64,000 bases of DNA from Leptogorgia sarmentosa. Lineage: Eukaryota. The stretch is from NCBI GenBank assembly GCA_964658305.1, contig OZ210884.1:2666001-2730000 (forward strand), in the 5' to 3' direction. Position 1 is the stretch's first letter; every line of letters starts with the position of its first letter. Shown piece after piece: positions 1-54,319 of the stretch. A model generated the notes under the pieces. That model was not told where the DNA came from. It saw only the letters and a list, made by a program, of their open reading frames with translations, and did no database searches. The translations under genes were made by a program, and so were the position numbers.

Positions 1-234
1 ATGCTCTATCTTTTTTCTGTAAGAGCTTTGTAATAATTTTTGGTACTTTTCTAGTAGCTAGCTGTACGGCGACTAAATTAGTAGTTCTTAAATAACTAAT
101 AACAGCTAGCAGTTCAAGATACTTTTTGAAGCAGAAATTGAATAGATTTTCTCCATTTTAAATATCCGTGCTTAAAATATATAACAGCAATACAATAATA
201 AACAACTTCTATTTTTTACCTTTATTTTTTTAAG

Positions 235-2098
235 GCGAAGTGGATTTTGGTCCAGAAGTCGAAGGCCAAGTGTGAGAACTCCTAGCGTTAGGATACCAAC
301 AATCCGAAAACCTGCTTTAAGGTAAATGAACATTTGAACAGACATGCATGTAGCTACACCCTATTTTCTAGAAATACATACATGCAGCAAAGGCAAAGCA
401 ACGTACATTATGCATTTTAATAAATACTTTCCTAAATTTTATAATTACATTTTCTGGCCAAAAAATACAGTAAAATATATAAAGCGGCTTTGGGGTCTAG
501 TTCCCCCAAATTCGAATTTACAGCAAAACTTGTGGATTGTTGTGTCTCACTTATTTGTCCAGCCTGGAAAAAATGCACATTCTGCCTTAAAACTACAGAA
601 AAACAAAAATAACTATATAAGCCTAAAAGCACTTTGATGATGAAAATTGTGGGGAAAGTATTATTCTTTTTGTAATTTTATTAATTTTGGTTCAGACGAT
701 CCAATTGGTGGTCTAGAAGAACGCCAACCCCCGTGAGGACACCCAGGGTCAGGAAACCGACTTCGAGGTAAGAAACATGGTGACTTTCCGAAACACCGTA
801 CAAAAATAATAGTACTTTAGTTTTCAGGGGATAAATGAATTCACGAATCTGATACAGATTTATTTATATTTGCGCGTCAGGCGTACAAGCTGGTGGTCTA
901 GACGAACTCCAACCAGTGTGAGGACACCAAAGGTTCGGAAACCCAGTTCCAGGTAACAAAAATCTCGAGCTCCTTTCAAAATACCAGCAAATAATTATGG
1001 TACAATTAAGGAATAGAAACCATGACTCAAAATGGCGGTGAAGTAACTTTGGATTCCCCCAAATTCGAATTTTCACCAAAAACCAGTGGTTTGTTGTGTC
1101 TTACTTATTTGTCAAGCCCGGAAAAAATGGATATCCTACCTTAACACTAAAGAAAAACAAAATAACTACATCATTACGCTAAAAGCTTACTTTGATGATG
1201 TAAAATGTTGGGAAAATATTATTTGTAAATTCATTCATTTTGGTTCAGACGTTCCAGTTGGTGGTCTAGAAGAACGCCATCCCCCGTGAGGACTCCCAGG
1301 GTGAGGAAACCGACTTCAAGGTAAGAAACATGGCGACTTTCCAAAACACCGTACAAAACTAATAGTACTTTAGTTTTCAGGGGATAAATAAATTCACGAT
1401 TCTAATACGGGTTTATTTACATTTGTGTGTCAGGCGTACAGGCTGGTTGTTTAGACGAACTCCAGCCAGTGTGAGGACACCAAAGGTTCGGAAACACAGT
1501 ACCAGGTAACAAAAATCTCAAGCTCCTTTCAAAATACCCAGCAAGTAATCATGGTGCAATAATAATATAGTTGTTAGGAAGAATAAAGGAATCACTTTAA
1601 TCAATAAACTCTATTCATTTTAATATGTTAGGCGTACAGGCTGGTTTTTTCGGCGAACTCCATCTAACGTCCGGACGCCAAGTACCAGGTAATAAATATT
1701 GGTTTGATGACTACTGTTTGGTATGAAATATTGTGCCAAAAAAGGATGAAAATTTTCACATTTTTCCAAGTAGAAAAGAAACAAGAAGCATGAACGAAAA
1801 CTTATTTTTAATTTCTTATTCATAAAGATACGCGACGTGATAAAGTTTTTTTTATTTTAATGGCTTTCATAAAATATTTTAACAACGATAGTTTTGTTTG
1901 TCATGTTTGTAATAACAGCATTACGTCGTTTACAACTAACTTATATTATATTTTAACTAACTCGTAAAGAATTACATGACATTTACAATAAGCTACTAAA
2001 GTTAATGTTTATAATATTATACGATGTTGAGGTGAATATTACTAATGTACAAATTCTTTTGCAGGTTTACAGGACCAAATCCAAATTCCAACAGAAAG
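235..2098 (+). CDS. Micro-exon array encoding cationic Arg/Ser/Thr/Pro/Trp-rich repeats; 5' end lies upstream of the window. Exons 235-321, 696-767, 881-952, 1249-1320, 1434-1505, 1632-1688, then probably 2065(or 2073)-2098
   Basis: Each of the six repeat exons has an AG acceptor and a GTAA donor, a length divisible by 3 (87,72,72,72,72,57 nt) and phase 2-2. Joined, they read open: RSGFWSRSRRPSVRTPSVRIPTIRKPALR / RSNWWSRRTPTPVRTPRVRKPTSR / RTSWWSRRTPTSVRTPKVRKPSSR / RSSWWSRRTPSPVRTPRVRKPTSR / RTGWLFRRTPASVRTPKVRKHSTR / RTGWFFRRTPSNVRTPSTR. There is no Asp or Glu in about 144 aa. Confidence 0.8.
500..1560. repeat. Tandem duplication of an approx. 553-bp two-exon unit
   Basis: Exons 696/881 and 1249/1434 are each offset by 553 bp, and the intron sequence is also repeated (e.g. 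CCCCCAAATTCGAATT near 523 and near 1056; GTAAGAAACATGG after both first exons). Confidence 0.85.
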
Positions 2099-2879
2099 GT
2101 AAATTTTTCGTCCGCTATATATCCATTATTTAAATTCAATTATGCTTAACTGCTATAAACCGCATTCAATAAATATTTTATATCTATTTTACACACAAAT
2201 CAGACTTCCGAATAAGGAAATGCAAATAATCTTTCCTTGAGAAAGACCTTTGCAGCATCTTTCCGATTTGGCACTCAATTCAGGGTAAATTAGTGTGACC
2301 TAATGAGGTTGTATGTTTGTCATCAATGCGCAATGTCGTTTTAAATTTTGAAATCCCTCAGACTCGTCAAAATAATCTTGGTATTTAACAATTTTCTTTT
2401 CAAATTTAACATATTTTCCAAAAGGTTTCTTTTCCTTCTTTTTATGATTTGATAAGGTGCAGAATGTAAACAAGCTGTTGAAAGGTAACGTATAGGTTAA
2501 ACTGTTCATAATATCACTGAATGAATGATCCACTGCAGCCACGTCGGATTTTATCCTTAAATATGATAATAGCAGGGCTCGCGAATGTTGTTATATAATC
2601 ACAGCCATAGACAATGACGGATTACTTGCTGCAGCGCCTGTAAGCTAAATTAAATTCGCGGACCTTGGAGGTTGGTTTTTCACAGGTATGCACGTTGTGA
2701 CATCCCGTGTTCTGGGACGTTCAAGTAGTCTATATTCAGACTTCGTGATCCAATGGAGCAACAATACCACTACTTAAATAGTTGAGGAGTCGTTTCTCAT
2801 TTAGAGAAAAGTCAAAAGCTGACGAAACCTTCAAAACCGATAACATTACGGAACTCCCAAAAGCGCGGGGTTTATTGAA

Positions 2880-3590
2880 TTTATTCTAGAAACACATACA
2901 TGCAGCAACCCCTCGCTCGCCTTACTAACGTACCTAGACTACATTCAACTTAGTGCAACTGCAACTATATCTAACAATATAAAGTACTGTAATAATTATT
3001 GTTATAATGATAATGCGGCAATTCAATTTTTTTGAATATTTTTTTAAAATAATTAAAGAAGTACAAAAAACTTTAGATTTTAACCTGAAACATACATGTC
3101 ACACTAATGTCATTAAATTTACATTTGATGTAAAATATTCGCATGAGACGTTTGAGAAACTATATTTTATTTTATGCCACTTTCATCTTTGAAATTAAAC
3201 CACTTTAAGCCAATATTCGTTCATAGTCCTGATATATCTAGTCCGTTAGCATTTTTAAATTAAAAGTCAGTCTTAAATTTACAAAACGTAAACTGAATTT
3301 CTCAAATTAAACTGCAAACAGAATGATTTTAGCTAAGCCTGTCATTCATATCAATACGTATATGTTTTGTATTTCACTGCATGATCGTTTCTCCTGGCTT
3401 TCCGTCTTTTTTTTCAGCATTAATGTATTCAAAAGTGTCTTTAAATTCCTGCAGCAATAGTTTTCGTCTTTGTTTTCGCCTTTTCAATGTCTTTAGTGTT
3501 CGCCTTTCATGATAGTCTGTCATAATTTTGAGATCAGCGATAGCCACCCTTCGACGACGACCCAAAATGGCGCTCAAACTTAGGAACTTC
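2880..3590. mobile_element. Dispersed repeat, unclassified non-autonomous element; inverted copy at approx. 11700-12435
   Basis: CTAGAAACACATACATGCAGCAACCCCTCGC (approx. 2886) is the reverse complement of approx. 12405-12435. CCACCCTTCGACGACGACCCAAAATGGCG (approx. 3544) is the reverse complement of approx. 11700-11735. Confidence 0.6.
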
Positions 3591-4307
3591 AGACTCCGCT
3601 ATGCTGCCATTTACTGGGGGTGGATCCATGATTTTTCGTACTGTACGTCAGGCAAAAATTTTGTTGCTAAACATTGGCAGGGGGGATGAGGAGGATGTTA
3701 TGGGGCGAGGGAATGTTAACTCTTTGTTGAGATAGTGGGAGGAAGCAAGTGAAATCTTATATGTTTTGATTTATAAAATTTGCAGGAAACGTCTGCTTCT
3801 GACAATGTCAGAATGACTATTGACTATGAAACATTTAAGGAATAGAAAACATTTCCCATGTTTACATCGAGTTATGTAAACACGAGTGCAAGTTTTGGTG
3901 AACGAGAAATGTGTTTGACAGTCTCCATAATTGATTTTTATAATACTTTGGAAAATAAATAACCAATTTCCCGAGTTATCGTTTAAGATATCGCAAGGTT
4001 AGTCTTGGTTTAATTGATACTAGAGGTCTCCATGGAATCAGAATGGGGACACTTCGATGGAATTATTCTAAAATTATTTATAAACTCATCCAGAATTACA
4101 ATTATGAAAGTTCGTTAGTCTTAAATAAATAGACATAATTGTATTGTATTTTTAATTAACAAAATTGTTGATGAAATTATACATATTCCAGTGAACAATC
4201 CTAATCCCGCTATACAAGCCATTTATTAATTACGCTAATGTTTATTGAAGGATATACTATAGCTAAGTTGGGGAAGTTAAAGATGTAGGAGCATAATCAA
4301 TTTCAAC

Positions 4308-4502
4308 ATTAATATCATTGAGTCAATCTCCTGGACGCTGATTGGCTAGAAAATTTCAACAACTGTGCGAATTAAAACGAAATTACACGGTTCTCGATGT
4401 ATTGATGAAAAATTGCACTTGTGTTTGTAGTTTATTTCGCCAAACACGCGTGCAATTTTCCATTAATACTTCGAGAACCGTGTAATTTCCTATACGAATC
4501 AG
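4308..4502 (+). repeat. Dispersed repeat; second copy at approx. 63200-63432
   Basis: ATTAATATCATTG..AGTCAAT.TCCTGGACGCTGATTGGCTA and GAACCGTGTAATTTCCTATAC are shared by both sites. Confidence 0.75.
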
Positions 4503-4566
4503 TAATTTACTTTGAAAATTAAGATATTTAATTAAATATTTTCTCTTCTGAAATTCTTTCATTTAG

Positions 4567-5093
4567 GAAAGACGATGTCTAAAACAATCGCGGATTTTGA
4601 GGGAATAGAGCCTAAGGTTTACAAAGATACCAAAGGCTTGCGAACCGTTGGTGTCGGCTTCAACATGGATCAAAAGAATGCTAAAACAACGTTTGAGAAA
4701 TACATACCTAAAACTGAAGTTTCCTTTGACGATGTTCGCCAAGGAAAAAAAAGTATAACCGAGAAGCAAGCCCTGAATCTTTTCCAAGGAACACTGAACG
4801 AAAAAATTCAGACAACGAAACGCATTTTTCCGAAATACGATAAATACCCAAAAGCCGTGAAGACGGCCCTCGTGAATGGAGTTTTCCGTGGTGAATTCAA
4901 AAAAAGTCATCAGACGGTCAAAGATATCAACAACGGTAAATGGGATAAGGTGCCGAACGAATATCTTGATCGAAAAGATTATCGCAACTCAAAACCTGGT
5001 ATAAATGGTGGCATTAAGACACGTATGGATTTTAACGCCAATATCTTCCGCGAATATGCAAAAGAATTGAAAAACCAAAAGAAAAATGGATAA
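4567..5093 (+). CDS. Phage-type (T4-like, GH24) lysozyme/muramidase, terminal exon; ATG-started ORF 4575-5093, 172 aa
   Basis: N-terminal FEGIEPKVYKDTKGLRTVGVG carries the canonical GH24 E-x8-D-x5-T catalytic motif followed by VGVG. The helical C-lobe includes ITEKQALNLF and KTALVNGVF. A strong polypyrimidine/AG acceptor (TTCTTTCATTTAG|G) ends at 4566. Confidence 0.85.
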
Positions 5094-8000
5094 CTGTTAA
5101 GTGTATATGAAATGACTGAAATCAAAAGGAAAAGCAAGAAGAATACTGGACATTGCCTCACCATTCATGACACTTGATTTATTAATTTTACATGGGTGGT
5201 TTAGTTTAGTTTAATTTAGTTTAGTTTAGATTAGAAAGATATTCTCGATCGTTGTATGTAATCAATGTTTGTTTAAAACTTTCGTTCATAATCAACACAA
5301 TATGTTAATAAAGATAAGGAAAAAAAACATGATAGAGTTGCCTGTCCGCTCATTTTTGTCAGCAATATTGCTCCGCATAATTGTGGTTGCAAGCAACTTC
5401 AGGCAAAACAATTCATTCAATATCCATGCTGGCAGCGAGATAGTGTTTATCAACGTTATGATAGTTTTAGGCCCCGTCCTCACAAGTGTGTTTTCAAATG
5501 TGTGCGCTTCCCGGTAAGACAGAAAACACATCAATCGATTCGGGTCCATACTACCGTTTTCGTAGCGTATTCGACTGTCCACACTAAAGCACTTGAACAC
5601 GCTCATCCGATGGTAAAGTGGCGTAAATCAGCAATTTACGTATGTTCGGTGTCTGCCATGTAAATGTAAAAGAGCTGATCAAACGATCTCAAATTTCATT
5701 TCTGCCTCTTATATGGGCTAAACTGTTTTGGCCCTAGCCAAAAGCCGTAAACGACATCTACGAGTGCATTTAGCGCAACAAACTAGCCTATTCGACCCCT
5801 TGCATTTTAAATCAGCCCATTTGAGCAAAGTAGCCCTAGACTTGGCTTAAAGCGATCGTTATAGTAAACGTTTCAGCGCTATAATTGTCATGATTATATT
5901 AGTTTTTATATTGGCATCGTTCAAAAATGGATTGAATCTTTACTTTGAATTGTTTCAGAACTTTGTGAGCTTGTACTGTGAATTCCAAATATAGCCATTT
6001 ATATAAATTTACGCATGATATATTGGCGCAGACTCGCAGAGGGTGCTACTTAAGCGTGATATGTAAATCGTGAGTTGCACCTCGCATTATATCGCAGCCA
6101 TATTTTTCAACTTCATATTATGTTGAATGCTTTACACAAAGAACACACTTTTTAATGAAAATATGCAGTATTTTTCAGATGGATTACATCAGCAATGAAT
6201 GCAATACTAAGGTGAGAATATGTTTATGCTTTATGTTTAATTAAATAATGTAAAAAATAATAAAATATTTCGTATGTTCTATTAATGAATTTTGAGCATG
6301 TGCGCCTGGTTGAAATTTGAATTTGGCGCGTCAAAATCACAGCTACGAATTAAGGCATCACTTGTGTACATTTATTAAGGTCTTAATTTCGTTTGACTTA
6401 GACTTATCTAGGATCGAAAGTCGGGCTTTAACATTGATTATTAGGCAAGTAGCTATATTACAGTTTCTCAGTTGCCTATTGGTTGAACATTATATTTTAC
6501 TAATAATAAAGGCATGACTCTGCTTGGGCGTTTGAGAAAATATAATTTTTAATGACTGCATGACTTGAAATCGGTGCCTGTATACTCGCTTCTGTGATTA
6601 GTTGCTTCTGCCATAAATCGTCATACTTATAATATGAATGAATTGGTATACTATTTACACGAATTCGAATTATTACTTGTGCTGTATTGGTAGCCTGATC
6701 CTATTGTATTTTAGGACCAAAACTTTATACTGCAAGTCTTATGATCTAAAAATATTACAATTCTTTCAAAGCGTATAAAACATATCTGTTGTGGAAATTA
6801 ATATATTTTTTTATTTTTATTTCTGTGGTCTGTACCATGATATACATGGGCGTACCCCAGTGTTTGCCTGGCTGTTGGGCAGAACAATTTTATGTTCTGC
6901 TTACCAGCTTAATATGTTTATGAACATTTTTATGAGTCCTAAACACGAAGTGCAGGTGCGAAGATTTTGTGTAGGAACAGACCTGCACAGATTAGAAATA
7001 TCATTCTTGATATTTTTCTATATATAATATATTTCGCACATAAGTATGCGTATAGTCTTAAGCCTTTCAATTGAATATTGATATAAAAGCCTACCGATGC
7101 ATCCGATTGTAAAAGCATCTAAGAAGTGTTAGAAATTGCGCAGTTTAATATGCACCCTTTGAATGACTAGGATTTAGCGCGCCTCCACACATCAAGTCAG
7201 ACTGTCGTTGTCGACCCGAAACACATGAGTAATTCCTGGAAAAAGATCGGCGCGAGAAAAAAAGTAGCAGGACAGAATATCGGTGACTTCGTAAAGAAGG
7301 GAGGAAAAGATTACTCTCTCTTTGGCGGCAATTGTCACAATGCATCCGAAAAACTCAAGAATAGAGGTTAACGTCGTTGGAACTAAGGTGTATTGAGAAT
7401 GGACGGATGACACGTGGTGTCGCAGGATAATGAGCTACATGCATTATTTGAGAAATCACTCGGGTAATGCTCTATCAGCCCAAAACATAAAAATGTCGAC
7501 AGAGGTTCAATTCAATAGGAACTATATTCATTTTACTCATAAATTATAATGAAGAAATTATTTCTGAATTGGCTCGTTTTGACCATTTTCAACCAAGACA
7601 GAGACGAGGGTCCTATTAAATTCTGTCAAGCTATATTCACGATCATAGCGGACTGCAAAGTCATTATTAATTATCATGGAGGGTTTTACTTGTTGTATGC
7701 ATGCAGGAGTCTACACAGATTACAAAAATATGGCCAATTGTTATGAAAGCGAACAGTAGGCAATGCTTCCTGAACACAGAGACAGACACTCCCACAAAGG
7801 GCCCCTCAGATGCGAGAAATGCTAAAAAAAGGCAATAAAATACAGAGAAACGACTACGGATGGACACACTAAACAGGTTTGTCGTTACTACAAGTTTGTT
7901 GTTATTTGGTTTGCCCAACATAAACTGCTGGGTATTATGAAGAGAAAATTTCAACTTGAAGTAGACAACGTTTTTCCCCCTTGGATTTTCACCAACATCA

Positions 8001-8555
8001 AAGAAATTGGATTTTTTTTTGTACGGTACAGTTTTTAATATCCTGCATACACTTTCACAAGTAATAGAGTAAAAAATACAAATTTATAGATGCATGATAA
8101 ATGCAAATACACAAATCCAAACAACTATTTATCATTATTTTGCCCACAGGGTAGAAAAATAAAACTATAACAATTTCTACAATAATTAAGACATTATCAG
8201 GGCGCATTTTTACGTACAGACTTCTTCTAAGATTGCTATGATTATGTCGAAAACCTACAGTACCAATTCATAACAATATCTGGAACAGATTTTAACAGAA
8301 ATGAGTAGCACTCGATATTCTTTTACTTTAATGACTTGCAAAAAGTTGGATAACTACGTACAACTCCAGCTCCCCATTTTTCGGCCGGACTGACTTCTGA
8401 CATTTAAAATGTGGTTACATAGCGATACATTTAACGTGCAGGTGCAATATATGTCCAAGGAAGGTTGTGCATGGGATTAATAATACTGAGGTATATAAAG
8501 GTATAATTAATAATACTGAGGTATAACGTCAATGTGACATTTCCTGTCGCTCTTA

Positions 8556-11500
8556 TTAGGCCAACGGGACTGGCGTCCATGGACGAGATCGCACAAACAT
8601 TCGGAAATTTTGGTAAGCAAGTGTCAGATTCTGGCCGACAACCACGCCATGTACACTGTTATAATCTTTCCCAGCAACACGTATGCCGATTCCAATAGCT
8701 TGAACTTCTGGCAAGTTGCAATCTATATAAATAGAAAAAGGTTCAGAAATTTTAGCGATAATCATCATTCATCTGATAGTGAAAAAAATAATCTTTTCAA
8801 TGGATGAGAGAGCATTACGAAGGTAAGGGATGAGCAATATGGCAGTTCAGAAAACGCAATGATTTTGAATGTTTCACCTTAATTAAATAAAATGGGAATA
8901 ATAATATATAGTAACTAATTCAATTTAGAACTTTTCTATTGTGTTTGCTGGATTGCGGCTGTTAGCGGTTCCGTTTTGGAAATACCGGACCACAAACGAA
9001 TGGAAATGATTGGCTAAAAAGCATACGGAACTCGACCGGAAACGATTCTCGACCGTTTTAATAAATCCTTTCATTCTTCAAAATGAATGCGATGTTTATA
9101 ATTATGTTTCAAGGATAAAAGTTAGTCTTTATATTGGCAAATCGGAAACGTAAAGAAACCACGAACCTGTATTGTTTTTGGTCACAACTCCAATACGTGC
9201 TTGTATCTCATTCTCGTCACCCACATTGAACCCTATTTCGAAACAGCCCTCCTGAAAGTCATTGACAGAAACAACATCCTCCGTTATAGCATTTATCCAG
9301 TCTTCAGGATTTAGGTCAAGAATTTTCTTTTCAAAGAATAAACTGTGGAAGTTCGGTGCGTTGACAGGGAAAGAAATTCCAAAACTCTCGGAAGACAAAC
9401 AAACTTCGGTAACCTTGGCATCAAAATGCGTGGAGGCCAGCAGATAAGGATTCTGGGACGTCCATCGCCCGGCGTCATACCCTGTGCTATCCTAGAAATA
9501 AATTCAATTTTTCAAAATGGAATCTATTTTTAATAAAAAATTCTAGTATAATACAAAGCATGGGCAACGTGTGCTTCGTATTTTGAAGTTAACGCCCAAT
9601 TGGCCGTTATCTCTCATTGATTTCGAATTTGTGTTTTTGTTTTGACCCCATCACGCACCTAGCGCATGCGCGTGCTCTGCGGGGCCAATGAGCAAATCCT
9701 TCAACGCTTGATATGCTTCCCTCACATCCACGTTTCATGTCGCAGGGGATCGGGATCGCGTTCTATTTAGTAAATAACTCGGTGGTATTATATAAAAAAG
9801 TAGCAGGGCTGATGCACATTTTATAGAATTTGCAGCATTAACATTTTTTACCGTTGATGCGCTCCCATTTGAGTAACCAACGAAGGTCCATCCGTTCCCT
9901 TGGCAAGAATTCGTATCTTCTTCACGGACGCACAGAGTAGCCGTGTGGCCGTCAGCATTTCGTGCTTTTATTCTGTAATTACCGGATCTGGCATCGCTGC
10001 AAATTTAATATGATAAGCGTCAGAGAACAAGGGCGAAAATCCATTCCTGAAAGTGGACGGGACGGTTCTTTATTTTCTTGGAGTTTAAAACTTTCATACA
10101 TCCCTACTACAAGTACGTTCCTACAAGTAATCCAGGAGGGTCGTAGCAGCGTATTCAACCTAGAGGTGGTGACCTAACTTTGGCGCCCAACAAAAATTTT
10201 TTTTCAACAATTAAAACTTCTAAATTTCGGGGGGGGGGGCAATTATATATTCGTCTCCGCTAATGCCTAGAACTGGTGGATCAAGTCCTCCCCTTACCTC
10301 ACGTGTAGCAAAAATATGCAAGAATTAAGTCGGAGTAATATATCTACAAATTTGTTCTGTTTTCAAATCATTCCTCAATTTTCTGCACTTCTATGCTTTA
10401 TTCTCACAATTCACCCAAATCTGACTTCCTTATGGCAGTACCATCACAATCTCTGGCAATCAGGGGCGTCGCGAGGTGGTGTGTGACAACCAACCCCCCC
10501 CCCCCTCCCCCCCCCCCCCCCCAAAAAAAAAACCTGCCATTGTCGGTCAGTTAATCATTGGACGGCAAAACTTTTTCACTGTTCCGGCTCTTGGGTAGGT
10601 CTGATGAATAAATCACATGCTCCATCGCTTAAGCCAATAGAATGTACCACAATTCTTGTCATGGTTAACACGTTTTAACGTTTAAAAACACTCAATTCAG
10701 AGGACATTGTTATGGGTGTTAAACTACTCAGGCTAACCGAAAGTTGTCGGAAATTTTGAGCGGTCGTTAGTTTAAAAAAATGTTTTATCAGTAAACATTT
10801 TTTGATACACCCTGTATATCACCTAAGATAAATCATTAACTGTTTTGATCCGGCACGTCCATTGAACACGCCCATTTGTCGGCAAAATCAGGTATCCACA
10901 CCCCCTCAGTTCAAATACCTTCGCGACTGCCCAGCTGGCAATATTTACGTTTCCAAGAGTTGCATACTTACCAAGATGTCCTGTGTGCTTCCACGCAGTC
11001 ATCGTATAGGACACCTTCGATGAAATCTAGGATATATTTCATGAGACGAATGTTGCAAATATTTCACCGTATATGTTACTGGAGATGTTCCAGCACATGC
11101 TTTGTCTTAAGATGAAGTGTTACATTCAACATGGATTCCATTGGTGATGTCACAATAGGAGTACAAAAAAAAATGGCGAGAAATCAATTCTAAAAAAATC
11201 GTCAAATTGAAATCGGATGCCTGTTTCCTATAAATCAATGTTTTGCTCTTGACTGTTTTAATATCCAATGGCTGAAATATTGGAAGCTAGGAGTGAGAGG
11301 AGAGTCTAAGAATTAATTAGCTGTAAACCTTGCTGAAAGAAATATTAAATTCGTAGATTCTTATCAAAAACCACCATAATACCCATTATTTTCTTTCAAT
11401 GAATGATGTAATGATAACTGCGATTGGCTAATCTCCAGCCACATGAATGTGCAAGTTTATAAATAGTTTTTTTTCTTTCGAGCTTTTTAAATAAACACTA

Positions 11501-15301: not shown

Positions 15302-16183
15302 TTATTGCTCAGATCGAGATTCCGTCAGTCGAGATATTTTCAAGCTTTTGAAAACTTTCAGTCCTTCCTTACGTAAAACTTTGTCCTTCCAAAAAAAGAT
15401 TAAACAATTGAATGTTGAATTCATAGACGCTATTGTCATACACCAGATTGCTGTCAGATTAGAACTATCCAAATTAAGCATTTTATACGTCGAATTCATC
15501 CTCAGTCCAACGTAGACGAACACAGGAATGGACAACGTCACATAACAAGCGACTGCCAGCAAACAGCTTGAAACATTTTTTAACGAAAAAGTATTTTCAA
15601 CGTCAGTACATGTTTGGTTACCTCTACGACTTTTTCTTACTACCATGAGTAGTTTATAGTTGAGAAATAACATTGGAGGAGAAACAATAACAAAAAAAAT
15701 CAAAACATGCACTTGGTATAAAATGACTGAGTCGTTGACAGATATTGATGTCAGGACCACCTCGATGAACAATAATACTGCAAAAATGGTAAAAAGTCTT
15801 CTCTTCGTTACCGATGTTCGATGAAAGATGGGATGTGATGTCGCCAAATATCGATCAAAATTCATCACCAAAAGAGCAATCAACGAAGAAGCAGGAAATA
15901 TATTTGTTGACCTTGAGAAGAAATACGGCCAGCTCGCATTTAAACCAAACTTCCCAGTCATGAACAACATCGCTGTTACAACAGCGAATGAATTTTTAGC
16001 AATGACTCCAAGCAGGTCGCAACACGACAAAACCATTATCATGAAATAGCACAACTTCGTGCGAATCCGCATTGATCTCCAAAAACATATGATAACGACG
16101 GAGTTTAAACATACTCCTGAGAAAAAGAAGAGTAGGTTGGTCAACAATATGAATATCAGGTTGACGAGAAAAGAAGATTCCAT
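15302..16183 (-). CDS. Intronless rhodopsin-like (class A) orphan GPCR, 293 aa
   Basis: Seven hydrophobic segments; TM1 LNS, TM2 LSCCDLL, TM3 MNFDRYLA (DRY motif), TM6 LSIP, TM7 NSTFNCLIFFWKDKVLRKE (degenerate NPxxY plus helix 8). Confidence 0.92.
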   Translation of the reverse strand: MESSFLVNLIFILLTNLLFFFSGVCLNSVVIICFWRSMRIRTKLCYFMIMVLSCCDLLGVIAKNSFAVVTAMLFMTGKFGLNASWPYFFSRSTNIFPASSLIALLVMNFDRYLATSHPIFHRTSVTKRRLFTIFAVLLFIEVVLTSISVNDSVILYQVHVLIFFVIVSPPMLFLNYKLLMVVRKSRRGNQTCTDVENTFSLKNVSSCLLAVACYVTLSIPVFVYVGLRMNSTYKMLNLDSSNLTAIWCMTIASMNSTFNCLIFFWKDKVLRKEGLKVFKSLKISRLTESRSEQ

Positions 16184-19100
16184 CTTTCAACAACTTTTTC
16201 TGAAGACTCGAACGTCAAAATAAGATTGTTGCTAAGGGCATGGAGAAGTTAAAGTGGGTGCGACTGACATGTCTAAGTGGATTTTCTATATTACAATAAA
16301 ATAGAATAATTAAGTTACTGGCCCAAAGAACACAGCACGTGGAAAGCATCGCGCATGGTAGTCGAGTATGATAAATATACCTTTGTTATTCTTGGGAGAA
16401 AATTTCAGCGCAGCATGCAGTGTCGTATTATTTTCCTTGTTGAGGAAAACTTAGCTTTTTCCGAACACTAGAATGCATTTGTGTTGACAAATCGAAAATG
16501 ACTTCCCGTCTCACAACTTCCCATGATGTGCACTCGAAAGTTGGGTTCAAAACGTCAGAATTCGATTTATCACTTCCTATAGCCCAACATATTTATGCTT
16601 AACGGAAAGGTTTAGTATATGTGACTTGCCATTTTCATTCGAATTTTGTGTTATTAAACTATTAAATGAATATAATAGCCTCCTTTTCAAGGAACTTATT
16701 GGTAAATTATAATTATACCCTTAAATAACGCTATTGTGAAGACTGCACGACGATCGAGTATGTGCGATTGATGTCGTTAAGTGGTGAAATGTCAATGATA
16801 CTGGAGTATATGTATATAACTCTCATGGTGTCTTAACTTGCCGTGTTTTTCATATAGCTAATGTTTTATTTGGAAAACTGAGTTTTTTTTATAGATAAAT
16901 ATCGATATGATGCCTCCAATGACAAAGCCCTGTTTGAGCGACTTGAGCACGAAAATGATCACGATATTACGACATACGTCATCATTAGTCATCCTTTTGA
17001 CAATGTTCCAATATTTTTCGTGTATACCCGAGAAACACAAGCACGACTTCAGCAAAATGGCAGGAAAGCTTCATGTTATTGTTAAAGTTTTAAAAGGGCA
17101 AAGTGACGAAGAATTAAATCGAAGTGCTCATGTCACAATACTGTCACAACTCAATGCGTTATCGTCTCTTTATTATAATAATAGGCACGCACGATGCGTG
17201 CATGCGTCTACGTTGATGCCTTGCATTTGAAATTCGCCGTATGATCAGTATATATAATACAAATATAATACAAGTATAATCCCACGAAATAGTTAATGAG
17301 AACCCCGTTTAGAAATCGCTTTACAGAATCTTGGAAATCTCTCCTTGGAAATTAGTCCTTCGAACGAACGTTAGAACAACGCACACTTGCGAAACACGCC
17401 CAAGTAAATCACATACGTCACGAGTTAACTTGCTGAAAGTTCGATACATCGTTTACCTTGAGAGCTCGTGACGTAAAAATACGTCATATTCGTTGTTGAA
17501 ACACAGCCAGCCAGAAATTTTACGCTTACATAGCCTCTACGTTGCTTAGCAACGTAGACGCAAAAATCAAAGCCCAACATAATGCTATATAAGTAGAGCC
17601 ATTAAAAACACAGCTTTAAATTTAAAAAAAAATTACACAGTGACGTTTCGTCTTAACTGAAGACATCTTTAGACAAAATTGATTATATTGCGTATACAAG
17701 TAGAAATTTAACTAACGAGCTAAGGAACCGGTCATTATTTATGGCAGAGGTGAGAGCTGGAGAGAAAATTGTGCGGTAGCCTTTTAACCAGCATGTCTGG
17801 CGTGGGGTAAGAGAAAATCTGAGAAGAATATATGCGTGGGATGAAATATTTCCATGCAATGTTCACCAGTCGGCACCAACTTCCTTGCACTACATTGGAA
17901 CTTGTTCCAGCCTGAATGATTACCCCAGTTATTTTTCAAAGTATTATTTGCAATATTGCTAATGCTCCATTAATATTATTTACAATCTGTTAAAAGTAAA
18001 TTATTCTTTGTATACGAGATGTACTGAAAAAGAAATCGGAATGAATAGTCGTCTCGCCCAACAATCCAGTGTTAGATCTCCGCCTGTAAAAATGCAGGGC
18101 TTCAAGCGGAATTATATTGAATTGCCTTTCCATCCCCTATTTTAGTCGTGGACGATTGTTCAATATATTAAAGGACGCCTGCCTTCTCTATTGCTTAGGA
18201 ACTGTATGCGCTAAAGTTTAGGAAAATGTTCGCTAGATTTTTACATACATCGATATCATAAATTAATTACATTAAACATACAAAACCAAATGGTGCTTGC
18301 CAGAATACAGCAGGATAGCTCAGAATTGAACAATCGATGTCTAAATAAAGATTATTAATATTTACAATCAAGCAAAACTAATATTATTTGGTTGCCACGT
18401 TTGGTCAAGAGTTTTTTTTCCTTCGCAATCAACTTAGTTGCTCGGAAACATAAGTCATTTCCGAGTATCGATAAGTGCACAATTGATTCGCCCTATACAG
18501 GGACTTCTTTTAAGTATTTTCCCGTTGGCGGGGAGCATTGTATGAAAATGCAACGCCAGAAGGGTCTGGGTTGGGGTTAGGTAAAGATCAAACAAGTCGG
18601 TGCCAGTATAAAATCCATATCTTCTCATGCACCACCGTTTAATATCTCCTTTATATAGATATAAATTCGATTCCTAATTCGATTATTTCAAATTGATGTC
18701 AGGAATCTGAATTGATGAAGAATTACAATTGATCAAGACCACTTCCAAGGAAGTTTGAACGAAAGCCAGTTTTTCTCGTGCACTTAATTCTGTTCTATAA
18801 CCTTATTCCCGAGTTCCAATTCGAATTATAATATGAGAAGGTATATTGTAGTATACACATGTTTACTTTCCGGTTAAGTTGGACTTAAAAGACGAAAGCT
18901 GTAAAATCATATAGAATTTTTGTTTTCGTACGAGGAAACCTGCACATGCATGATACAATTAGCTCATTCCTTGTTATGCAATATCCTATTGGGAGCGGGG
19001 TTGCGTTTTAATTTTTTTAAATCGTTTAAAACACCAAGATATTGCGATCTATATTTTGCAACATCAATTTCATACATTTCTTGTTTTGCAGTATTTATAT

Positions 19101-21719: not shown

Positions 21720-24330
21720 ACCTTCTCTCGAATCGTCGACGACGTCAACAATGTATTTAATTCGAAGTAATTTACATTGCCTCAAATAGCAACGAACAAA
21801 TTAACAATCACGCAACTAGCTACAAGTTATTATTATACTGTCTGCCTAATATGCCAAAAATTCCTATCCCTTCCATGGGATCCTTATTTATTAAATAATA
21901 GATCAATTTCTGAAGCCTTTATATTAATTGAACAAGCCGACCAAAAATAGAGTCAAATCTCTGCATTGACCATTTTTGAGCACGTGTCTTACCAATTTGC
22001 CCAACTCTAGTTCATATATAAAGCATTCCTACCTCCTTATAATTCCTCTATAGCATCTTGTTTCGCCATCCTGTTTTATTCTTGAGCCAAAGAGCGAACG
22101 TTTTAGCCCCGTACGTGCATGGGTAGTAATACCGCTCGGCTTTTTTACCCCCGTAAAGACGGAATAGTGGAGTCTGTGATAGCAATTAGAAGAAAAGTCG
22201 ATAATGCTAACGATTTATAATTAAAATTTGCATAGCTGAACCACATTGTTTGGATGCCTTCGTCACTGTTTATATATATCCTCAAAAATCAATCAACGCC
22301 TTCCTTTTGTGACAACCAATTTCAAAGCGAAGTCTCTATCTCTTTATAAGAGTAATATCGAAAATAAAGCATGTTAATATCCAAAGTAAAACAATTGTTG
22401 CTATTTGCTCTGTTTTCTGGAACAATATTCTTCATAGGCCTACATCTATGGCTAAATCCAGATTGGAAGGGACATTATCGCATAACACCTACGAATGAGG
22501 AATCAACCGAAATCCACTTGTTAACCAACTACCCTCTGATGACGGAAAAGCCCTGGAATGAAAATCAAACAGATGCTGACAGGTCCCGATTATGGCAAAG
22601 ACAGCTGGAATTAGAGGAAACCTTACAGAGAAATCTTAACCATACTTTTGTTAAAACTGTACATCTGCTCGTAAATCAACCGTCGGCTCAGCAAAGATTA
22701 AAGAACTTGCCATTCTACAATAAGGATAAAATACTTGTACATCCCATTCATGCGCTACCTAAATATAGGGACTTTTTGGACTACGCAAATGAAAGACTTC
22801 AAAACAAGGTTGTCGCAATGCTAAACATGGATATTTACCTTGGAGAAGGATTCGACAAATTAAATAAAACGTTGATGGTAAAACGGAATATATCATACGC
22901 GTTGACCCGCAGTGGACGGCAGGAGCAAAGGTGTAATATGGCAGGAAAGCGTGGATATTGTAATCAAGGAAGATATATTGGTTCGCACGATGCATATGTA
23001 TTTGTCGTTACGCAACGCATAGCTGAGTCCACTTTGTCTGAGTTGAATTATAACATGAATGTTATGGGGGCAGAAAATGTCTTTATTTGGGTTTTAAAAC
23101 AACGAATGAAAATGAAAGTTCTCAATCCTTGCAAGTACCTAAGAACCTATCACAACCACTGTGTCGATATACATGGTAGTGTTAGACCAAGGATAAACTG
23201 GGGCGGCAAAAGTGGTACTGCCCCTTTCAGCGGCTTATATAAATGAGATGCGATACATAAAATGAATATCGAACACCGCATTCATCTAATTCTTTGTTAA
23301 GTAGATTGTAAATTTAATAAGCAATTCTCGTAGATGTACTGTTGCGCTCTAATAGCAAAAACTCTTATCACAAAACGTTAGTCAAACGAGATTTAGATGG
23401 TTGACCATTAAATATAAGCAATTTAATAATTAGTCATAGAGACGGTTATTTCTAAAACAACATGTTTTAGTAGAATCTATAGTTTATTAAAAGGTGATTA
23501 ATTCATTGATGTTGTCCTTATTTCTGCAGCATTCATTATAAGCTTGTTTTACAACCATAGTTGTCGCTGCAATTTTAGCGTTTTGAGTAATAAAATGAAT
23601 ACATAAGTATACCTGGACATTCCTAAGTGTTTAACCATACGAGCTTAAAACATGCGATTGCATTTCGAGAGGAAATTTTAAAATTCATAGAGAATAGAAG
23701 GCGAAATGGTTGCCTTGATATTCGCTGGCGTTACAAATGGATTTCCTACACTTCTTCGATCAAAACTTTGAATAGAGATCTGACAAAGAGAAGATGTATA
23801 CGCATGTTGCGTAGGCGTTGAGGTTTTTTATTTGTTCACAATGACTTTGCTGCCTATAAATTCTAAGATATTTATCGACGTAAAGAACTTGAGAGTTTAA
23901 ATAAAACATTTTATGCTGACTTACAGCCACCGTTAGCCGAAAATTCGTAGCTGCTTTAAAGCCAATCAGAAAGTGGAAATTTGGCTTAGAGAATTCAACT
24001 GGTGTAATTTCCAGAAGGAATTTGAAAATTGGTAAAGTGGCAGGTCACGATTTTGGCTTGATATTCGCTGCCGTAGGAGGAATTCATATCAAGTGAAATT
24101 AATTGGTACCTGTGAGTCTAGCTCAAACAAGTTCAGTTCTTAATAATAAAATAATTCTCTTCATTAGAAATTACATAGACGTGTCCCAGTGCTAATTTCT
24201 GGCGACTTCTTCTGAAAACATATTATTGAAGTGTTACTATAGTGTCGCTAAAATACGCTTGTTGTAAACATGGCATTATAAATTTACAATTTGGAACAGG
24301 ATTCCACTCAATTCTTCAAAATTCTGAGTG
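21720..24330 (+). repeat. Segmental duplication paired with approx. 58765-61150; partial copies of the flanks at approx. 19235-19750, 20350-20530, 24555-24650, 25065-25530
   Basis: Near-identical non-coding flanks on both sides of the two ORFs, e.g. GTCGACGAC..CAACAATGTATTTAATTCGAAGTAATTTACATTGCC and GCTGCCTATAAATTCTAAGATATTTATCGACG. Confidence 0.9.
22371..23246 (+). CDS. Intronless type-II membrane protein, putative GT-A-like glycosyltransferase (copy 1), 291 aa
   Basis: Short basic N-tail plus a hydrophobic anchor (LLLFALFSGTIFFIGLHLWL), a stem, then motifs RQLELEETLQRNL, VAMLNMDIY (NxD), YALTR, GSHDAYVF, GAEN, LNPC, HNH. An intact paralog lies at 59452. The enzymatic function is inferred. 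Confidence 0.75.
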   Translation: MLISKVKQLLLFALFSGTIFFIGLHLWLNPDWKGHYRITPTNEESTEIHLLTNYPLMTEKPWNENQTDADRSRLWQRQLELEETLQRNLNHTFVKTVHLLVNQPSAQQRLKNLPFYNKDKILVHPIHALPKYRDFLDYANERLQNKVVAMLNMDIYLGEGFDKLNKTLMVKRNISYALTRSGRQEQRCNMAGKRGYCNQGRYIGSHDAYVFVVTQRIAESTLSELNYNMNVMGAENVFIWVLKQRMKMKVLNPCKYLRTYHNHCVDIHGSVRPRINWGGKSGTAPFSGLYK

Positions 24331-50176: not shown

Positions 50177-53100
50177 AATCTGTTTTTTTTTTGTAAGGTA
50201 TTATATCTCGGATCTTTTTTTTCTTTTATTTGTTCGAAATAAATTGCGAATAGGCTAAAAGGCGTTCTAGACAATCGATTTTTGTATTCTTAATTCTTTT
50301 CAATAAATACTGATATAGTTTCAATCATTATACGTATTTTGTACCTGTCTTGTCTGATGTCAACTTGACTTCTAAGATTGATTCGAAATTGATGGTTTGT
50401 AACGTGTGCTAGAGCACAATAGAACGTATCGATTTTGGCAAACTTACCTTGGATTTTTCGGCGGCACATTTTCAAAACGCAATTCTGATACCAATTTCCA
50501 TCGTAAAAGGGAACCCCGTTTTGTTATTCTTTTGAGCCGTTTTATCTTCGACTGATCCGGAGTTGTGCAAACGTAGTTTAAAATACTACTCGCCGCTAGG
50601 TTGCTCGTTTAAACTTGGAAAAAAACTTGTCATGTGATTAAAAGGAAATTTTCTCCATTTTATTGATAATAGAAATGTTTATGAAGATTCCAGCAAAGTT
50701 ACTTGATAGTGTTAGGGTTTACATAATGTGATTTACACACAATTTATCAAAATATAAAAACCTGACTGTGGTCAACAGAATGATATATCCTTTCCGTGCA
50801 TGATTACATAATTATACTCATATATAGTACACAAAAAATAAAAGTCAATTCAGAAATTGAGCAAGTCGTGATACAGATCTACGTTACAGTGTAGCAATAC
50901 AGTAGAAATCGGTACAGTACAATACAAAGCACTACAATACAATACAATACAGCGGCAAATTGGAGAGGGGGGCTTTCTTTTCATCTGTTTTTGCATATTT
51001 AAAGTATAGATTTTGATTCGAAATATCTAAATTTCAGCATTAAATCTCTTTCCTTTATAAAGGAAATAACTCAGGTAAAGAAAAAATGCCATAATTACGG
51101 CAAAAATTACCACAAATTTCGGACATTTTTGTCTTCAATTTTTGAAGATATGAACTGCACAAGTCAATAATGTTGATGTGAAACCTATTAAAGTTTACAT
51201 GCCAATGCCTATGCGTCTTGTTTGATTTCGCCAATTCCAATTTTACTTTGCATGTTTATGACCTGTGTAAAGCCATACAATTCTTTATGCGGACGATAGA
51301 CTTTAAGGTTAACTTTTATAATGGCTTTTACGCCACCATCAAAGTTTGAACTTCTGACACACTGTCAAATTGTTCACTATAAAAATTACCGTCCTTCGTT
51401 AACAATTTGCCAAAAGCACCCCCTCTTCCCACCCGTTTGGCTTCTAGGACAACCCTACGAAATACAATACGATTACTCTATTTGTATCACGACTTGAATT
51501 ACATCAAATGACTTGCAAACAGTTTCTAGTTTTCTGCCATGTTTCCGTTGCCAAACGCCATCATTTTGTCAGAGGGATATTGCATGGGGATCACCTCAAG
51601 GGATTTTGTGGAATTTTTTGCGCGACGTTTTCTTAGCAGAAATACGACGGTTGCGGTAAGCAAAACAACAATGAGCCCGGCACACACCAGTATGGCAATC
51701 ATGATTGTATTTGGAGTGGATTCAGCTTCATCATCTACAAACGAAATGAAACATTTGCATGTACATCTTTTCTTGAAAGGTCGAATTGGGTAGAATTCAA
51801 TTGTATCGTTTATGCCGAGTGGGTATATGGAGGTTTTGCGGCTTTTTCATGGTATATTGATTACTTTTTGATGTTTTTTCCCACTATCTGTGCCGTGACG
51901 CCGAAAAAGACGTTGTTCATAATTATATCTTTATCTCGAAATATTGAATATGAAAATTAGCTAAATCCAAAAGTGAATTGAATTCTCCTCAAATTAAAAT
52001 TTTAGCTGATAAAGGTAACGGCGAATTTAACAAGAGAGTTTCGTGCCTTACGATCCGACTCTCAGCTAATCTTTCTGTGCAAAGACTCTCTATCTATTTA
52101 TAATGATGGAGTGTTTTTGTTTTTCGGGTCTGCAAGAAATTTTACACGAAAGTTGGAACTTGAAACGGTGCATTCATGATACAATATAGCTGCAATCGAT
52201 ATTTTGAAAACATATTTTAAAAAAGAAAATTTAAATAAACTACAATACCGGAAGATTTTCGTTTTTTTAGATTATCTTAGATAATTTCGTTGTAATTTTG
52301 TTCTAAATTTAAAACTTAAACTGTTTCATGTTGATAAGTCTAGCCTTATTTTGATAACAAAAACCAAACAAATGAACAATTTCAGATTCCGCTGGTCAAT
52401 TGAACCGTAATGTTAGCTTGGACGTCGGAATTAAGATTCAACACAAGGAAATAGCATATCCAGCAATGTCAGCGCAAATCACCAAAAAGTTCCAAAAGTT
52501 ATATAAATTGACGAAAAAAGATGCCTCATATAAAAGACGCCTCATTGTCTCTAACAAAATGCCACAGACGTTTTTATGACTGCTATACTAATGTCCCCCT
52601 ACTATCCCTTCATGCACTCTTTGCGATATTGATTAAAAGATGGCTAATTAATGGATCGTTAATATTTAACAATTAGACAACGAGGCCGAGTTGTCTATGA
52701 GCCAATAGTGAGTTTTCGCGAAAACGCGAGTTTTCTGCAGTAGCCAATTGTTTTCCTTTGCTTTTTCGCGAACCGTGGTCTATCACAGAATAGACGACGG
52801 CTGAGTAGCCAATGAGAATGTAGCATTTGTAATAGACGATGGTTGGGTGTATACTAAAAAGAAATAGCCAAACCGACAAACCTTGATCTTTGTTACTTTC
52901 CTCTTTAATTTTTTCTCGATACATGATGGGACCAATAGAGAGTTGGTAACTGCGTTCCGTAGCATCTGACGCATCACGACGTTTTCTGTTGGAACAAGTT
53001 GTACTTCGGGCACAAACAGAATCCTGTGTATTGATGTTACAAAGTCGCAGATCACAGTGGATGTAAACGAACGTGTGATTGGCGACGAATCTGAAAACTT

Positions 53101-54147: not shown

Positions 54148-54319
54148 CAGAGGCCGCGGAAGATCGATAATTGGGGGGGGGGGGGGGGGGGGGGTGCACA
54201 TATTCATATATTCGTGATGTGCATTACTGATTTCCTTTGAAATCAATTGTTTTCAAGGTCTTTGAACACGAATATATGAATATGTGCCCTCCCCAATTAT
54301 CGATCTTCCGCGGCCCCTG
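54148..54319. mobile_element. hAT-like MITE
   Basis: TIRs CAGAGGCCGCGGAAGATCGATAATTGGGG / CCCCAATTATCGATCTTCCGCGGCCCCTG; 8-bp flanking repeat GTCTAGTC / CTCTAGTC (7/8 match). Confidence 0.8.

Follow-up and report, generated by a model that had tools for sequence, protein, structure and literature searches.

Six small exons encoding Arg/Trp/Pro-rich repeats are spliced to an exon encoding a phage-type (GH24) lysozyme, and at the level of transcript and open reading frame the fusion of the two is real. The gene lies on the forward strand, at the left end of the window (the whole stretch of 64,000 nt analysed). The fusion had been put forward in a sequence-only reading of the same DNA, and is borne out by spliced contigs in which repeats and lysozyme share a single open frame, and by the same architecture in a relative. 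The interpretation we favour, for and against which we see equal weight, is that of one gene, in which six acid-free micro-exons and two linker exons lead in frame to the lysozyme; the encoded protein is probably secreted, and its polycationic tail would bind and disturb anionic bacterial envelopes, giving the muramidase access to peptidoglycan.

The features of the gene are reported below; joints are written as last base>first base, as placed in the contigs, and X4, X5 and X6 indicate sequencing runs.

235..321, + strand: repeat exon A, 87 nt, phase 2/2, AG/GT borders; long-type repeat (..SGFWSRSRRPSVRTPSVRIPTIRKPAL..); joint 319>694 used in 3/3 runs (X4-X6)
669..1521, + strand: B-C, two exons together with their introns, copied in tandem as D-E, period 553 nt; 669-968 and 1222-1521 are 91% identical over 300 nt
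696..767, + strand: repeat exon B, 72 nt, 24-aa unit RSNWWSRRTPTPVRTPRVRKPTS; joints 319>694, 765>879
881..952, + strand: repeat exon C, 72 nt; joints 765>879 (X5, X6), 949>1246 (3/3 runs)
1249..1320, + strand: repeat exon D, 72 nt, duplicate of B (identical at 66/72 nt); joints seen in contigs
1434..1505, + strand: repeat exon E, 72 nt, duplicate of C; joints 1318>1432 (X5), 1503>1630 (X5, X6)
1632..1688, + strand: repeat exon F, 57 nt, shortened final repeat; joints 1503>1630, 765>1630, 1685>2062, 1688>2071
2065..2098, + strand: linker exon G, 34 nt; joint 1685>2062 (cut +3) in X5, X6; alternative start 2071 (28 nt, in frame), joint 1688>2071 in X4, X6
2457..2484, + strand: linker exon H, 28 nt, encoding ..NVNKLLK; joints 2095>2454 (X5, X4), 2482>4565 (3/3 runs); alternative start 2463 (22 nt, in frame), joint 2096>2461 in X4, X6
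4567..5317, + strand: last exon, with 8 coding nt (..GKT), GH24 domain 4575-5090, stop 5091-5093 and 3' UTR

Repeat exons, linker exons and their joints

The six symmetric micro-exons with acid-free repeats, claimed from the sequence, are found as described: all six are flanked by AG and GT, their lengths are multiples of three, they share one phase, and their peptides, rich in Arg, Trp and Pro, contain neither Asp nor Glu. Each exon carries one repeat unit, opening with RR; RR is thus present at every exon junction, while RTPR is found within units, and paired Trp/Phe in all of them. The N-terminal 167 residues encoded in the window include 51 Lys or Arg, no Asp or Glu, 9 Trp and 21 Pro (pI 12): the charge is extreme, and amphipathic or hydrophobic segments are absent. 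The tail matches no PDB sequence at E <= 10 and no Pfam family above cut-off, the only match being Extensin_1 (26.5 bits, cut-off 105).

The symmetry of all the repeat exons means that the tail can gain or lose length, by exon duplication or skipping, with the frame kept. The tandem duplication of B-C into D-E, recovered by a repeat search along with the exon family, is a way in which the array grows, and exon-skipping or extra-repeat joints among the contigs describe several tail-length forms, to be read as a list of forms rather than as isoform proportions, because the data are contigs.

The contigs come from public runs, all from one study. Runs X4-X6 are taken as RNA because of their GT..AG joints, absent in the DNA-like run X1; the run records do not state RNA. 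The splice sites of exons A-F are all used in X4-X6 contigs with GT..AG joints (15 joints listed); joint 1688>2071 has GT..AC ends by the letters of the window. Ahead of the lysozyme domain, eight introns with GT..AG ends are spliced out. A contig of 1378 nt from X5 has no mismatches to the window and stays in one open frame throughout: its path runs through 232-319, 694-765, 879-949, 1246-1318 and 1432-1503 and on to 4565-5173, and joints 1503>1630, 1685>2062, 2095>2454 and 2482>4565 are each GT..AG. When the window is translated along this path, one open frame of 339 residues is obtained, stopping at the lysozyme stop. The exon or exons before exon A fall to the left of the window: the X5 contig has an extra 274 nt ahead of position 232, and there is no contig match on 1-231. 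Of the upstream exon, only 30 nt are visible, and the 5' end of the gene, with any signal peptide, is outside the window.

All three RNA-like runs show splicing onto the lysozyme exon, and no contig of DNA-like X1 does. The joint uses the acceptor, 8 nt ahead of the start codon, that had been pointed out in the sequence-only reading, where junction mapping was suggested as a check; the contigs of the public runs supply it, linking repeats to lysozyme in all three RNA-like runs. The path there proposed, from 2073-2098 into 4567, holds in part: the linker is used, but it starts at 2065 or 2071, not at 2073. The direct joint 2098>4567 does exist, but in only one of the three runs (X6), and the route that is open in frame includes an exon that had been missed, 2457/2463-2484. 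With a start at 2065 or 2071 the direct joint is out of frame, and would therefore yield a repeat-only product; the presence of exon H restores the frame between repeats and lysozyme. The alternative acceptors 2071 and 2463, each offset by 6 nt, leave the frame intact, and all the observed paths with two linker exons are open. The competing joint into 2204, also suggested, does not appear among the 15 joints listed.

One X4 contig (3708-4594) crosses the lysozyme acceptor unspliced; because of this contig, and of the Met kept at the start of the domain, the lysozyme may also be expressed separately. An Rfam scan of 1-9000 gave no matches, and a scan of the last intron for bacterial promoters and terminators gave nothing informative.

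The lysozyme, its relatives and its genomic setting

The downstream exon had been read as a GH24 lysozyme, and Pfam agrees: the ORF at 4575-5093 (172 aa) matches PF00959 with a score of 35.7 bits (cut-off 22.3, E 1.2e-8). Glu11, Asp20 and Thr26 are the catalytic positions of T4 lysozyme (T4L), and in the phmmer alignment to T4L chains they are occupied by E9, D18 and T24 of the query. The AF2 model of the domain has a pLDDT of 93.7 and a pTM of 0.85; each of the top 50 Foldseek matches in PDB is either T4 lysozyme or a T4L fusion (prob 1.00, TMq 0.52-0.68). On the evidence of sequence and model, the lysozyme encoded from 4567 onwards is a complete T4-type GH24 enzyme, with catalytic positions filled and fold intact, and muramidase activity is predicted. 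The domain is contained in a single exon, uninterrupted by introns. The ORF taken alone has no signal peptide, and the Met at the start of the domain is kept in all relatives. The last exon is covered by contigs at 4565-5173 (X5) and 4565-5317 (X4), and its 3' UTR contains AATAAA at 5307.

A relative with repeats and GH24 in one ORF, which had been indicated as a further check, is found in another assembly. This intronless, cDNA-like contig of 1402 nt, here L001, has a 395-aa ORF starting from ATG, composed, in order, of a hydrophobic, signal-peptide-like N-terminus (15-aa Kyte-Doolittle mean 2.5), six Arg-rich repeats (204 aa, with 70 Lys or Arg and no Asp or Glu), the linker peptide NKLLKGKT, common to the window, and a lysozyme (33.3 bits on PF00959) 82% identical to that of the window. 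WW is kept between the two, while the number of repeat units differs. The dN/dS between window and L001 is 0.26 for repeats and linker (167 codons) and 0.12 for lysozyme (168 codons), values indicating that purifying selection acts on both halves. A single-sequence model of L001 has no secondary structure in residues 26-215, and pLDDT is below 50 for 24-258.

More distant relatives, L002 and a protein from the octocoral Paramuricea clavata, the only named relative, appear to be stand-alone; L002 has a stop just ahead of its ATG. In an unrooted tree, built without bivalve rows, 19 close relatives lie on one side of a branch (96/96) and 18 metagenome relatives on the other; the latter are what remained of 19 loci, hand-picked from 80 returned, after one was removed by a stop-codon filter. 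In a library of 1.84 billion proteins, the best 150 of 1456 matches contain a single close relative, P0002 (98% identical, 172 aa). Among the same 150, the closest non-animal relatives are 33-54% identical, and most have a hydrophobic N-terminal segment, not cationic repeats; the N-terminal extensions of 18 more distant, longer library matches that were inspected also differ from these repeats. Among longer database proteins, a search for the fused protein with the lysozyme as query gave 0/265 candidates at E <= 0.001, and the whole L001 ORF, used as protein query, gave two matches, neither with repeats. This absence is weak evidence, because the collections hold mostly unspliced gene calls.

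The window also carries an ORF for a rhodopsin-type GPCR and a ZP-domain gene; the Atlas clusters nearest to a neighbouring ORF occur most often in Cnidaria. Spliced onto host exons and with animal genes as neighbours, the lysozyme resides in an animal genome, probably that of an octocoral.

Possible roles of the cationic tail

In the proposed mechanism, a secretion leader would export the repeat-lysozyme protein, its polycationic N-terminal tail would bind and disturb the anionic bacterial envelope, and the muramidase could then reach and digest peptidoglycan; duplication or skipping of symmetric exons would set the length of the tail. Secretion of the window product is likely: it is argued from the leader of L001, since the 5' exon of the window gene lies outside the window, and a signal peptide is predicted. 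Its composition and the example of engineered polycation-endolysin fusions suggest that the tail may permeabilise or target bacteria, and that dose may be tuned by exon number; the protein would act as an uncleaved fusion. Counted against a fused effector is the comparison of B-C with D-E, where exons (91.7% identical) are no better kept than the internal intron (90.3%), a result uninformative on constraint.

If the chain were cut, the gene would encode a polyprotein precursor, a secreted pro-protein cleaved at dibasic sites into several short Arg/Trp/Pro antimicrobial peptides and a free lysozyme, with two activities side by side. Multi-copy antimicrobial peptide precursors are processed at dibasic-type sites, and a layout of one unit per exon, each opening with RR, is consistent with such processing, as is the fact that both a Met and a compact domain border are conserved where the lysozyme begins; unit number varies among transcripts and relatives, as expected if copy number sets dose. 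We judge it unlikely, however: acidic or spacer pro-regions, usual in such precursors, are absent between units, where Asp and Glu do not occur, and basic residues are so dense that cutting would leave very small fragments. The absence of fusion protein is far less probable still. The joined contigs would then be chimeras, read-through products or non-productive transcripts, and translation of the lysozyme alone would start at the ATG at 4575, under a separate promoter or from a bicistronic message, repeats and lysozyme being two neighbouring genes. The conserved Met, the unspliced contig spanning the acceptor and the apparently stand-alone relatives, with the stop just before the ATG of L002, are in keeping with it; but the frame is open along every observed two-linker-exon path, the linker peptide is kept in L001, dN/dS is below 1 across repeats and linker, the same ORF, complete with start codon and hydrophobic leader, recurs in an independent assembly, and a lysozyme alone would be without signal peptide.

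A tail that anchors rather than permeabilises is held to be improbable. The predicted-disordered polycation would tether the enzyme to bacterial cell-wall polymers, or to the polyanions of host sulfated mucus, matrix or secretory granules, with no damage to membranes, and lysozyme would stay concentrated at the surface. Binding-type partners (PGRP, MALRD2, HSPG) are fused to bivalve GH24 genes, according to the accessible text of PMC5303276, and argue for this role. So do the extreme charge, unaccompanied by any amphipathic or hydrophobic stretch, and the lack of structure and low pLDDT in the L001 model. Paired Trp/Phe are typical of membrane-interface-active peptides, and their recurrence here, with the conserved WW, fits such an activity better than a pure charge anchor.

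Comparison with known systems

Among Pro/Arg-rich and Trp-rich antimicrobial peptides are apidaecin, Bac7, indolicidin and tritrpticin. The tail resembles peptides of this type in its acid-free Arg, Pro and Trp composition, but no sequence relationship is detected in PDB or Pfam; its Pro content (21/167) is below that of typical Pro-rich peptides, and the repeats are attached to an enzyme, while the known peptides are free. The enzyme shares the fold and the Glu/Asp/Thr positions of T4 lysozyme, with an identity of only about 22%.

The closest published parallel for the fusion of phage-derived GH24 to host genes is in bivalves, with partners other than this one; none was found for cnidarians in the literature searched. 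As far as the accessible text goes, bivalve co-opted phage lysozyme (BCPL) genes gained introns and paralogues, some species fuse GH24 to host genes in a single transcript, and in one case the lysozyme is expressed alone too (Ren et al. 2017, Open Biol 7:160285, PMC5303276). Like the window gene, they place a phage-type lysozyme in an animal genome, fused to host sequence; the host is here cnidarian-like, and the partner, in place of PGRP, MALRD2 or HSPG, is a predicted signal peptide (from L001) followed by a micro-exon array in which acid-free Arg/Trp/Pro repeats stand in tandem. Literature on GH24 or phage-type lysozymes in octocorals, corals and cnidarians, judged by title and with subscription journals outside the scope, gave no paper on such a gene. 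The concept of an acquired fragment combined with host-derived sequence bearing a signal peptide is shared by the HGT-chimeras of arthropods (PNAS 2026, PMC13389597), a survey which covers arthropods and, in its accessible part, mentions lysozyme only via citing the bivalve paper. Phage-lysozyme co-option would extend from bivalves to a cnidarian-like lineage, and a route would be outlined by which a foreign gene becomes a host effector, gaining a secretion leader and a functional module via symmetric micro-exons; for coral biology, the product is a candidate effector with a possible influence on the microbiome of the surface.

The engineered counterpart is represented by Artilysins, in which, in the accessible text, killing of Gram-negative bacteria across the outer membrane was strongest when endolysins carried a polycationic nonapeptide at the N-terminus, and was helped by linkers (Briers et al. 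2014, mBio 5:e01379-14, PMC4161244). N-terminal polycation, linker and peptidoglycan hydrolase are likewise found in one chain here, at the level of transcript and ORF. Tentatively, and with somewhat more doubt than belief, the gene may be seen as a natural 'Artilysin' predating the engineers: a cnidarian would have taken a phage muramidase and added, by exon shuffling, a secreted, copy-number-adjustable Arg/Trp/Pro array that takes the enzyme across the outer membrane of marine Gram-negative bacteria, with exon duplication or skipping tuning its length between alleles, paralogues and isoforms. If so, it would be a natural counterpart to the leading design for endolysins against Gram-negative bacteria, with a ready, evolution-tested tail and linker for comparison with engineered tags. 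The Artilysin tag is engineered and nine residues long, whereas the tail described here is natural, repetitive, rich in Arg, Trp and Pro and of about 170-200 residues, is accompanied by a predicted eukaryotic secretion leader, and has a predicted activity.

Repeat exons and lysozyme exon

Within 235-1688 six short exons lie on the + strand, every one bordered by AG on the acceptor side and GT on the donor side. They are listed here with the lysozyme reading frame that follows.

Repeat and lysozyme features (coordinates, strand, description)
235-321, +, repeat exon A, 87 nt, AG/GT borders
696-767, +, repeat exon B, 72 nt, AG/GT borders
881-952, +, repeat exon C, 72 nt, AG/GT borders
1249-1320, +, repeat exon D, 72 nt, AG/GT borders
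1434-1505, +, repeat exon E, 72 nt, AG/GT borders
1632-1688, +, repeat exon F, 57 nt, AG/GT borders
4575-5093, +, lysozyme reading frame starting at the ATG, 172 codons, within the exon from 4567

The lengths of exons A-F are all divisible by three and a single phase is common to them, the first base of each completing a codon. A single 24-residue unit with the pattern RS.WWSRRTP.PVRTP[RK]VRKP.S is specified by every 72-nt exon; the unit of exon A is longer, and related in type. The pairs B-C and D-E form a 553-nt tandem duplication, introns included (91% identity over 300 nt; 91.7% for the exons, 90.3% for the internal intron). The N-terminal part encoded in the window, indicated here as the tail, consists of 167 residues, with 51 Lys+Arg, no Asp/Glu, 9 Trp and 21 Pro, and has a calculated pI of 12. 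No family was detected for the tail among Pfam profiles and PDB sequences.

The lysozyme scores 35.7 bits against PF00959 (Phage_lysozyme of Pfam), for which the curated threshold is 22.3. The catalytic residues of T4 lysozyme are E11, D20 and T26: in the alignment to T4 lysozyme chains, E9, D18 and T24 of the window are found opposite them. The model, folded with a 17-sequence alignment, has a pLDDT of 93.7, and its best 50 PDB matches are, in all 50 cases, T4 lysozyme or T4L fusion constructs. A tblastn search found no second lysozyme copy within the window. The 2.1-kb intron 5' of the lysozyme exon contains three very high-copy repeats (2701-3000, 3601-3900, 4201-4500), where the summed contig depth in X1, a DNA-like public run, is ~1.4e4 to 8.6e4, versus ~100 nearby; in the last of them, 4379-4427 and 4441-4489 form an inverted repeat with 49-nt arms, 90% complementary, of MITE-like appearance.

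Splicing of the repeats to the lysozyme

The ability of these exons to be joined was evaluated on contigs from X4, X5 and X6, three samples of one study, indicated as RNA-like: their RNA nature is inferred, as the runs carry no RNA record for this stretch. Their contigs feature GT..AG joints that coincide precisely with the exon borders predicted, while none of these joints is present in the X1 contigs. An X5 contig of 1378 nt, with 0 mismatches to the window, includes exons A, B, C, D, E and F, the linker exons 2065-2098 and 2457-2484, and 4567-5173; its joints, to which alignment cut shifts apply, are 319>694, 765>879, 949>1246, 1318>1432, 1503>1630, 1685>2062, 2095>2454 and 2482>4565. Translated from the window, this path is a single open frame of 339 residues, from exon A through the lysozyme stop. 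The repeat tail and an intact GH24 domain are joined in one spliced reading frame, a possibility raised by the sequence-only reading, and the same architecture is present in L001, a metagenome relative described below.

The acceptor anticipated at 4567 is used in all three RNA-like runs, and the contig joints agree with a linker exon ending at 2098. Its start, formerly placed at 2073, is instead observed at 2065 or, in X4 and X6, at 2071. The path originally drawn was also incomplete, since it did not include the second linker exon, present in X4-X6 contigs and starting at 2457 or, again in X4 and X6, at 2463. As the alternative acceptors are 6 nt apart within each linker exon, all observed combinations of the two are in frame. 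The 1688>2071 joint has GT..AC ends on the window letters. The direct joint 2098>4567, earlier suggested as an in-frame link, does exist, in one run only (X6), but it breaks the frame after either of the observed starts (2065, 2071), with a stop about a dozen codons on, so that the product of this form would consist of the repeats alone. Among the 15 listed contig joints, none corresponds to the competing splice into 2204.

Repeat number also varies. Shorter forms are generated by joints B>F (765>1630; X4 and X6) and A>D (319>1247; X6), and a joint that "goes back 63", with 9 extra letters, indicates a differently arranged array in X4 and X6. The repeat exons being symmetric, the frame is kept in every change seen. 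Compared with the window, the main X4/X6 lysozyme-exon contig (4565-5317) has 31 differing letters and, after 4630/4631, a 6-nt insertion; it represents another allele or a paralogue, equally fused but with fewer repeats, so that part of the variation stems from it, and not from alternative splicing. It may also be the source of the GT..AC reading. The 6-nt insertion is located just past the catalytic Asp.

Upstream end, relatives and genomic setting

The X5 contig carries 274 nt ahead of position 232 and no sequence on 1-231; the first exon or exons are therefore located left of the window. In X4, the final 30 letters of the exon upstream encode, by eye, a Gly/Ser/Arg/Thr/Pro stretch, resembling what comes after the leader of L001. 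L001, a contig of 1402 nt belonging to another assembly, was found by scanning metagenome contigs with the family alignment and contains an intronless, single ATG-started frame of 395 residues. Residues 1-21 are hydrophobic (15-residue Kyte-Doolittle mean about 2.5, the whole-protein maximum); six Arg-rich repeats follow, three of the long and three of the short type (204 residues, 70 K+R, 0 D+E), then NKLLKGKT and a lysozyme 82% identical to that of the window. The fused architecture is kept in a relative with a secretion-type leader. A single-sequence model of L001 hints that the tail might be disordered: residues 2-25 form a helix, 26-215 lack secondary structure (pLDDT <50 for residues 24-258), and the C-terminal domain is folded. 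Between window and L001, dN/dS is 0.26 for repeats and linker (167 aligned codons; dN is biased downward, the repeat alignment having been picked for best match) and 0.12 for the lysozyme (168 codons), with dS about 1.1.

A search of 5.8 billion proteins found 23 close relatives, 57-98% identical, the sole organism-named one being from the octocoral Paramuricea clavata (63%). In an unrooted tree, 19 close relatives are split from 18 metagenome relatives (18 kept of 19 loci, hand-picked among 80 returned) with branch support 96/96. The window gene clusters with L001 and two protein relatives, P0002 and P0003; the "..GKT-Met" acceptor context of P0003-like genes, the same as in the window, suggests that they may share the fused architecture. 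In L002, a metagenome contig of the Paramuricea-type clade, a stop immediately precedes the ATG, and repeats are absent from the 391 nt upstream. L002 (1-1813) comes from the same assembly as L001; its lysozyme is 65% identical and appears to be stand-alone, with a convergent TPR-like frame at the 3' end. Another protein relative, P0006 (227 aa, 73-75% identical), features an acidic, non-repeat N-terminal extension of 54 residues, ending in ..EGKT-Met, which may derive from another 5' exon or from read-through of an intron. Outside the clade, identity is 33-54% for the best matches in a library of 1.84 billion proteins; in the 18 distant library proteins examined, the lysozyme domain is mostly preceded by a hydrophobic N-terminal segment.

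Other genes of the window (coordinates, strand, description)
15302-16186, -, rhodopsin-family 7TM receptor (GPCR) frame, single exon, 294 aa; PF00001, E 1.2e-8
52673-55260, -, zona-pellucida-domain gene; ZP-N (E 9.9e-14) and ZP-C (E 6.5e-13) on separate exons
22368-23246 and 59449-60324, +, two paralogous frames of ~292 aa, N-terminal hydrophobic segment

For a neighbour frame in the window, the closest Atlas clusters occur most often in Cnidaria; taken with the Paramuricea relative, the GPCR frame and the zona-pellucida-domain gene, this points to a cnidarian host, probably an octocoral. The two paralogues have no Pfam family, and the Atlas clusters closest to them (score 0.99) consist of unnamed cnidarian proteins; a glycosyltransferase-like match (score 0.90) is probably due to chance.

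Proposed action and comparison with known systems

The fusion protein is presumably secreted. In the reading considered most likely, its acid-free Arg/Trp/Pro tail would bind and disturb anionic envelopes (LPS, teichoic acids), after which the muramidase would cut peptidoglycan. Alternatively, the product may be a polyprotein, cut at RR sites into peptides and free lysozyme, which we consider unlikely; the tail might also serve purely for anchoring or retention, an explanation to which we assign an equally low probability. Much less probable is that the joined transcripts are non-productive and the lysozyme is translated by itself, as the conserved frame, the conservation of the linker and L001 all argue against it. 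The structure of the fusion is solid; its antibacterial role is putative.

PMC5303276 describes, in bivalves, animal-acquired phage-type GH24 lysozymes with intron gain, duplication and host-gene fusions expressed as single transcripts, where the partners are PGRP, MALRD2 and HSPG; in the window gene, in contrast, the partner is a polycationic repeat tail. Given this precedent, and a tail without detectable family, the window gene is classed as a phage lysozyme that has been co-opted and carries a polycationic partner both new and modular. Neither a published cnidarian GH24 gene nor this repeat partner was found in the open literature searched, subscription journals not being covered. A GH24 lysozyme of the annelid Owenia fusiformis (P0056 / P0205; 44% identical), one of the 18 distant proteins above and with a signal-peptide-like leader, is also an animal chimera, whose partner, in contrast, is a C-terminal Cys-rich, Lys-rich domain.

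Finally, the fusion may be seen as the natural analogue of a principle used in engineering, the joining of a polycation to an endolysin. In Artilysins, the engineered fusions of this kind, the topology that performed best, according to PMC4161244, was an N-terminal polycationic tag followed by a linker. Both they and the window fusion, the latter known at the transcript and reading-frame level, are composed of an N-terminal polycation, a linker and a hydrolase.
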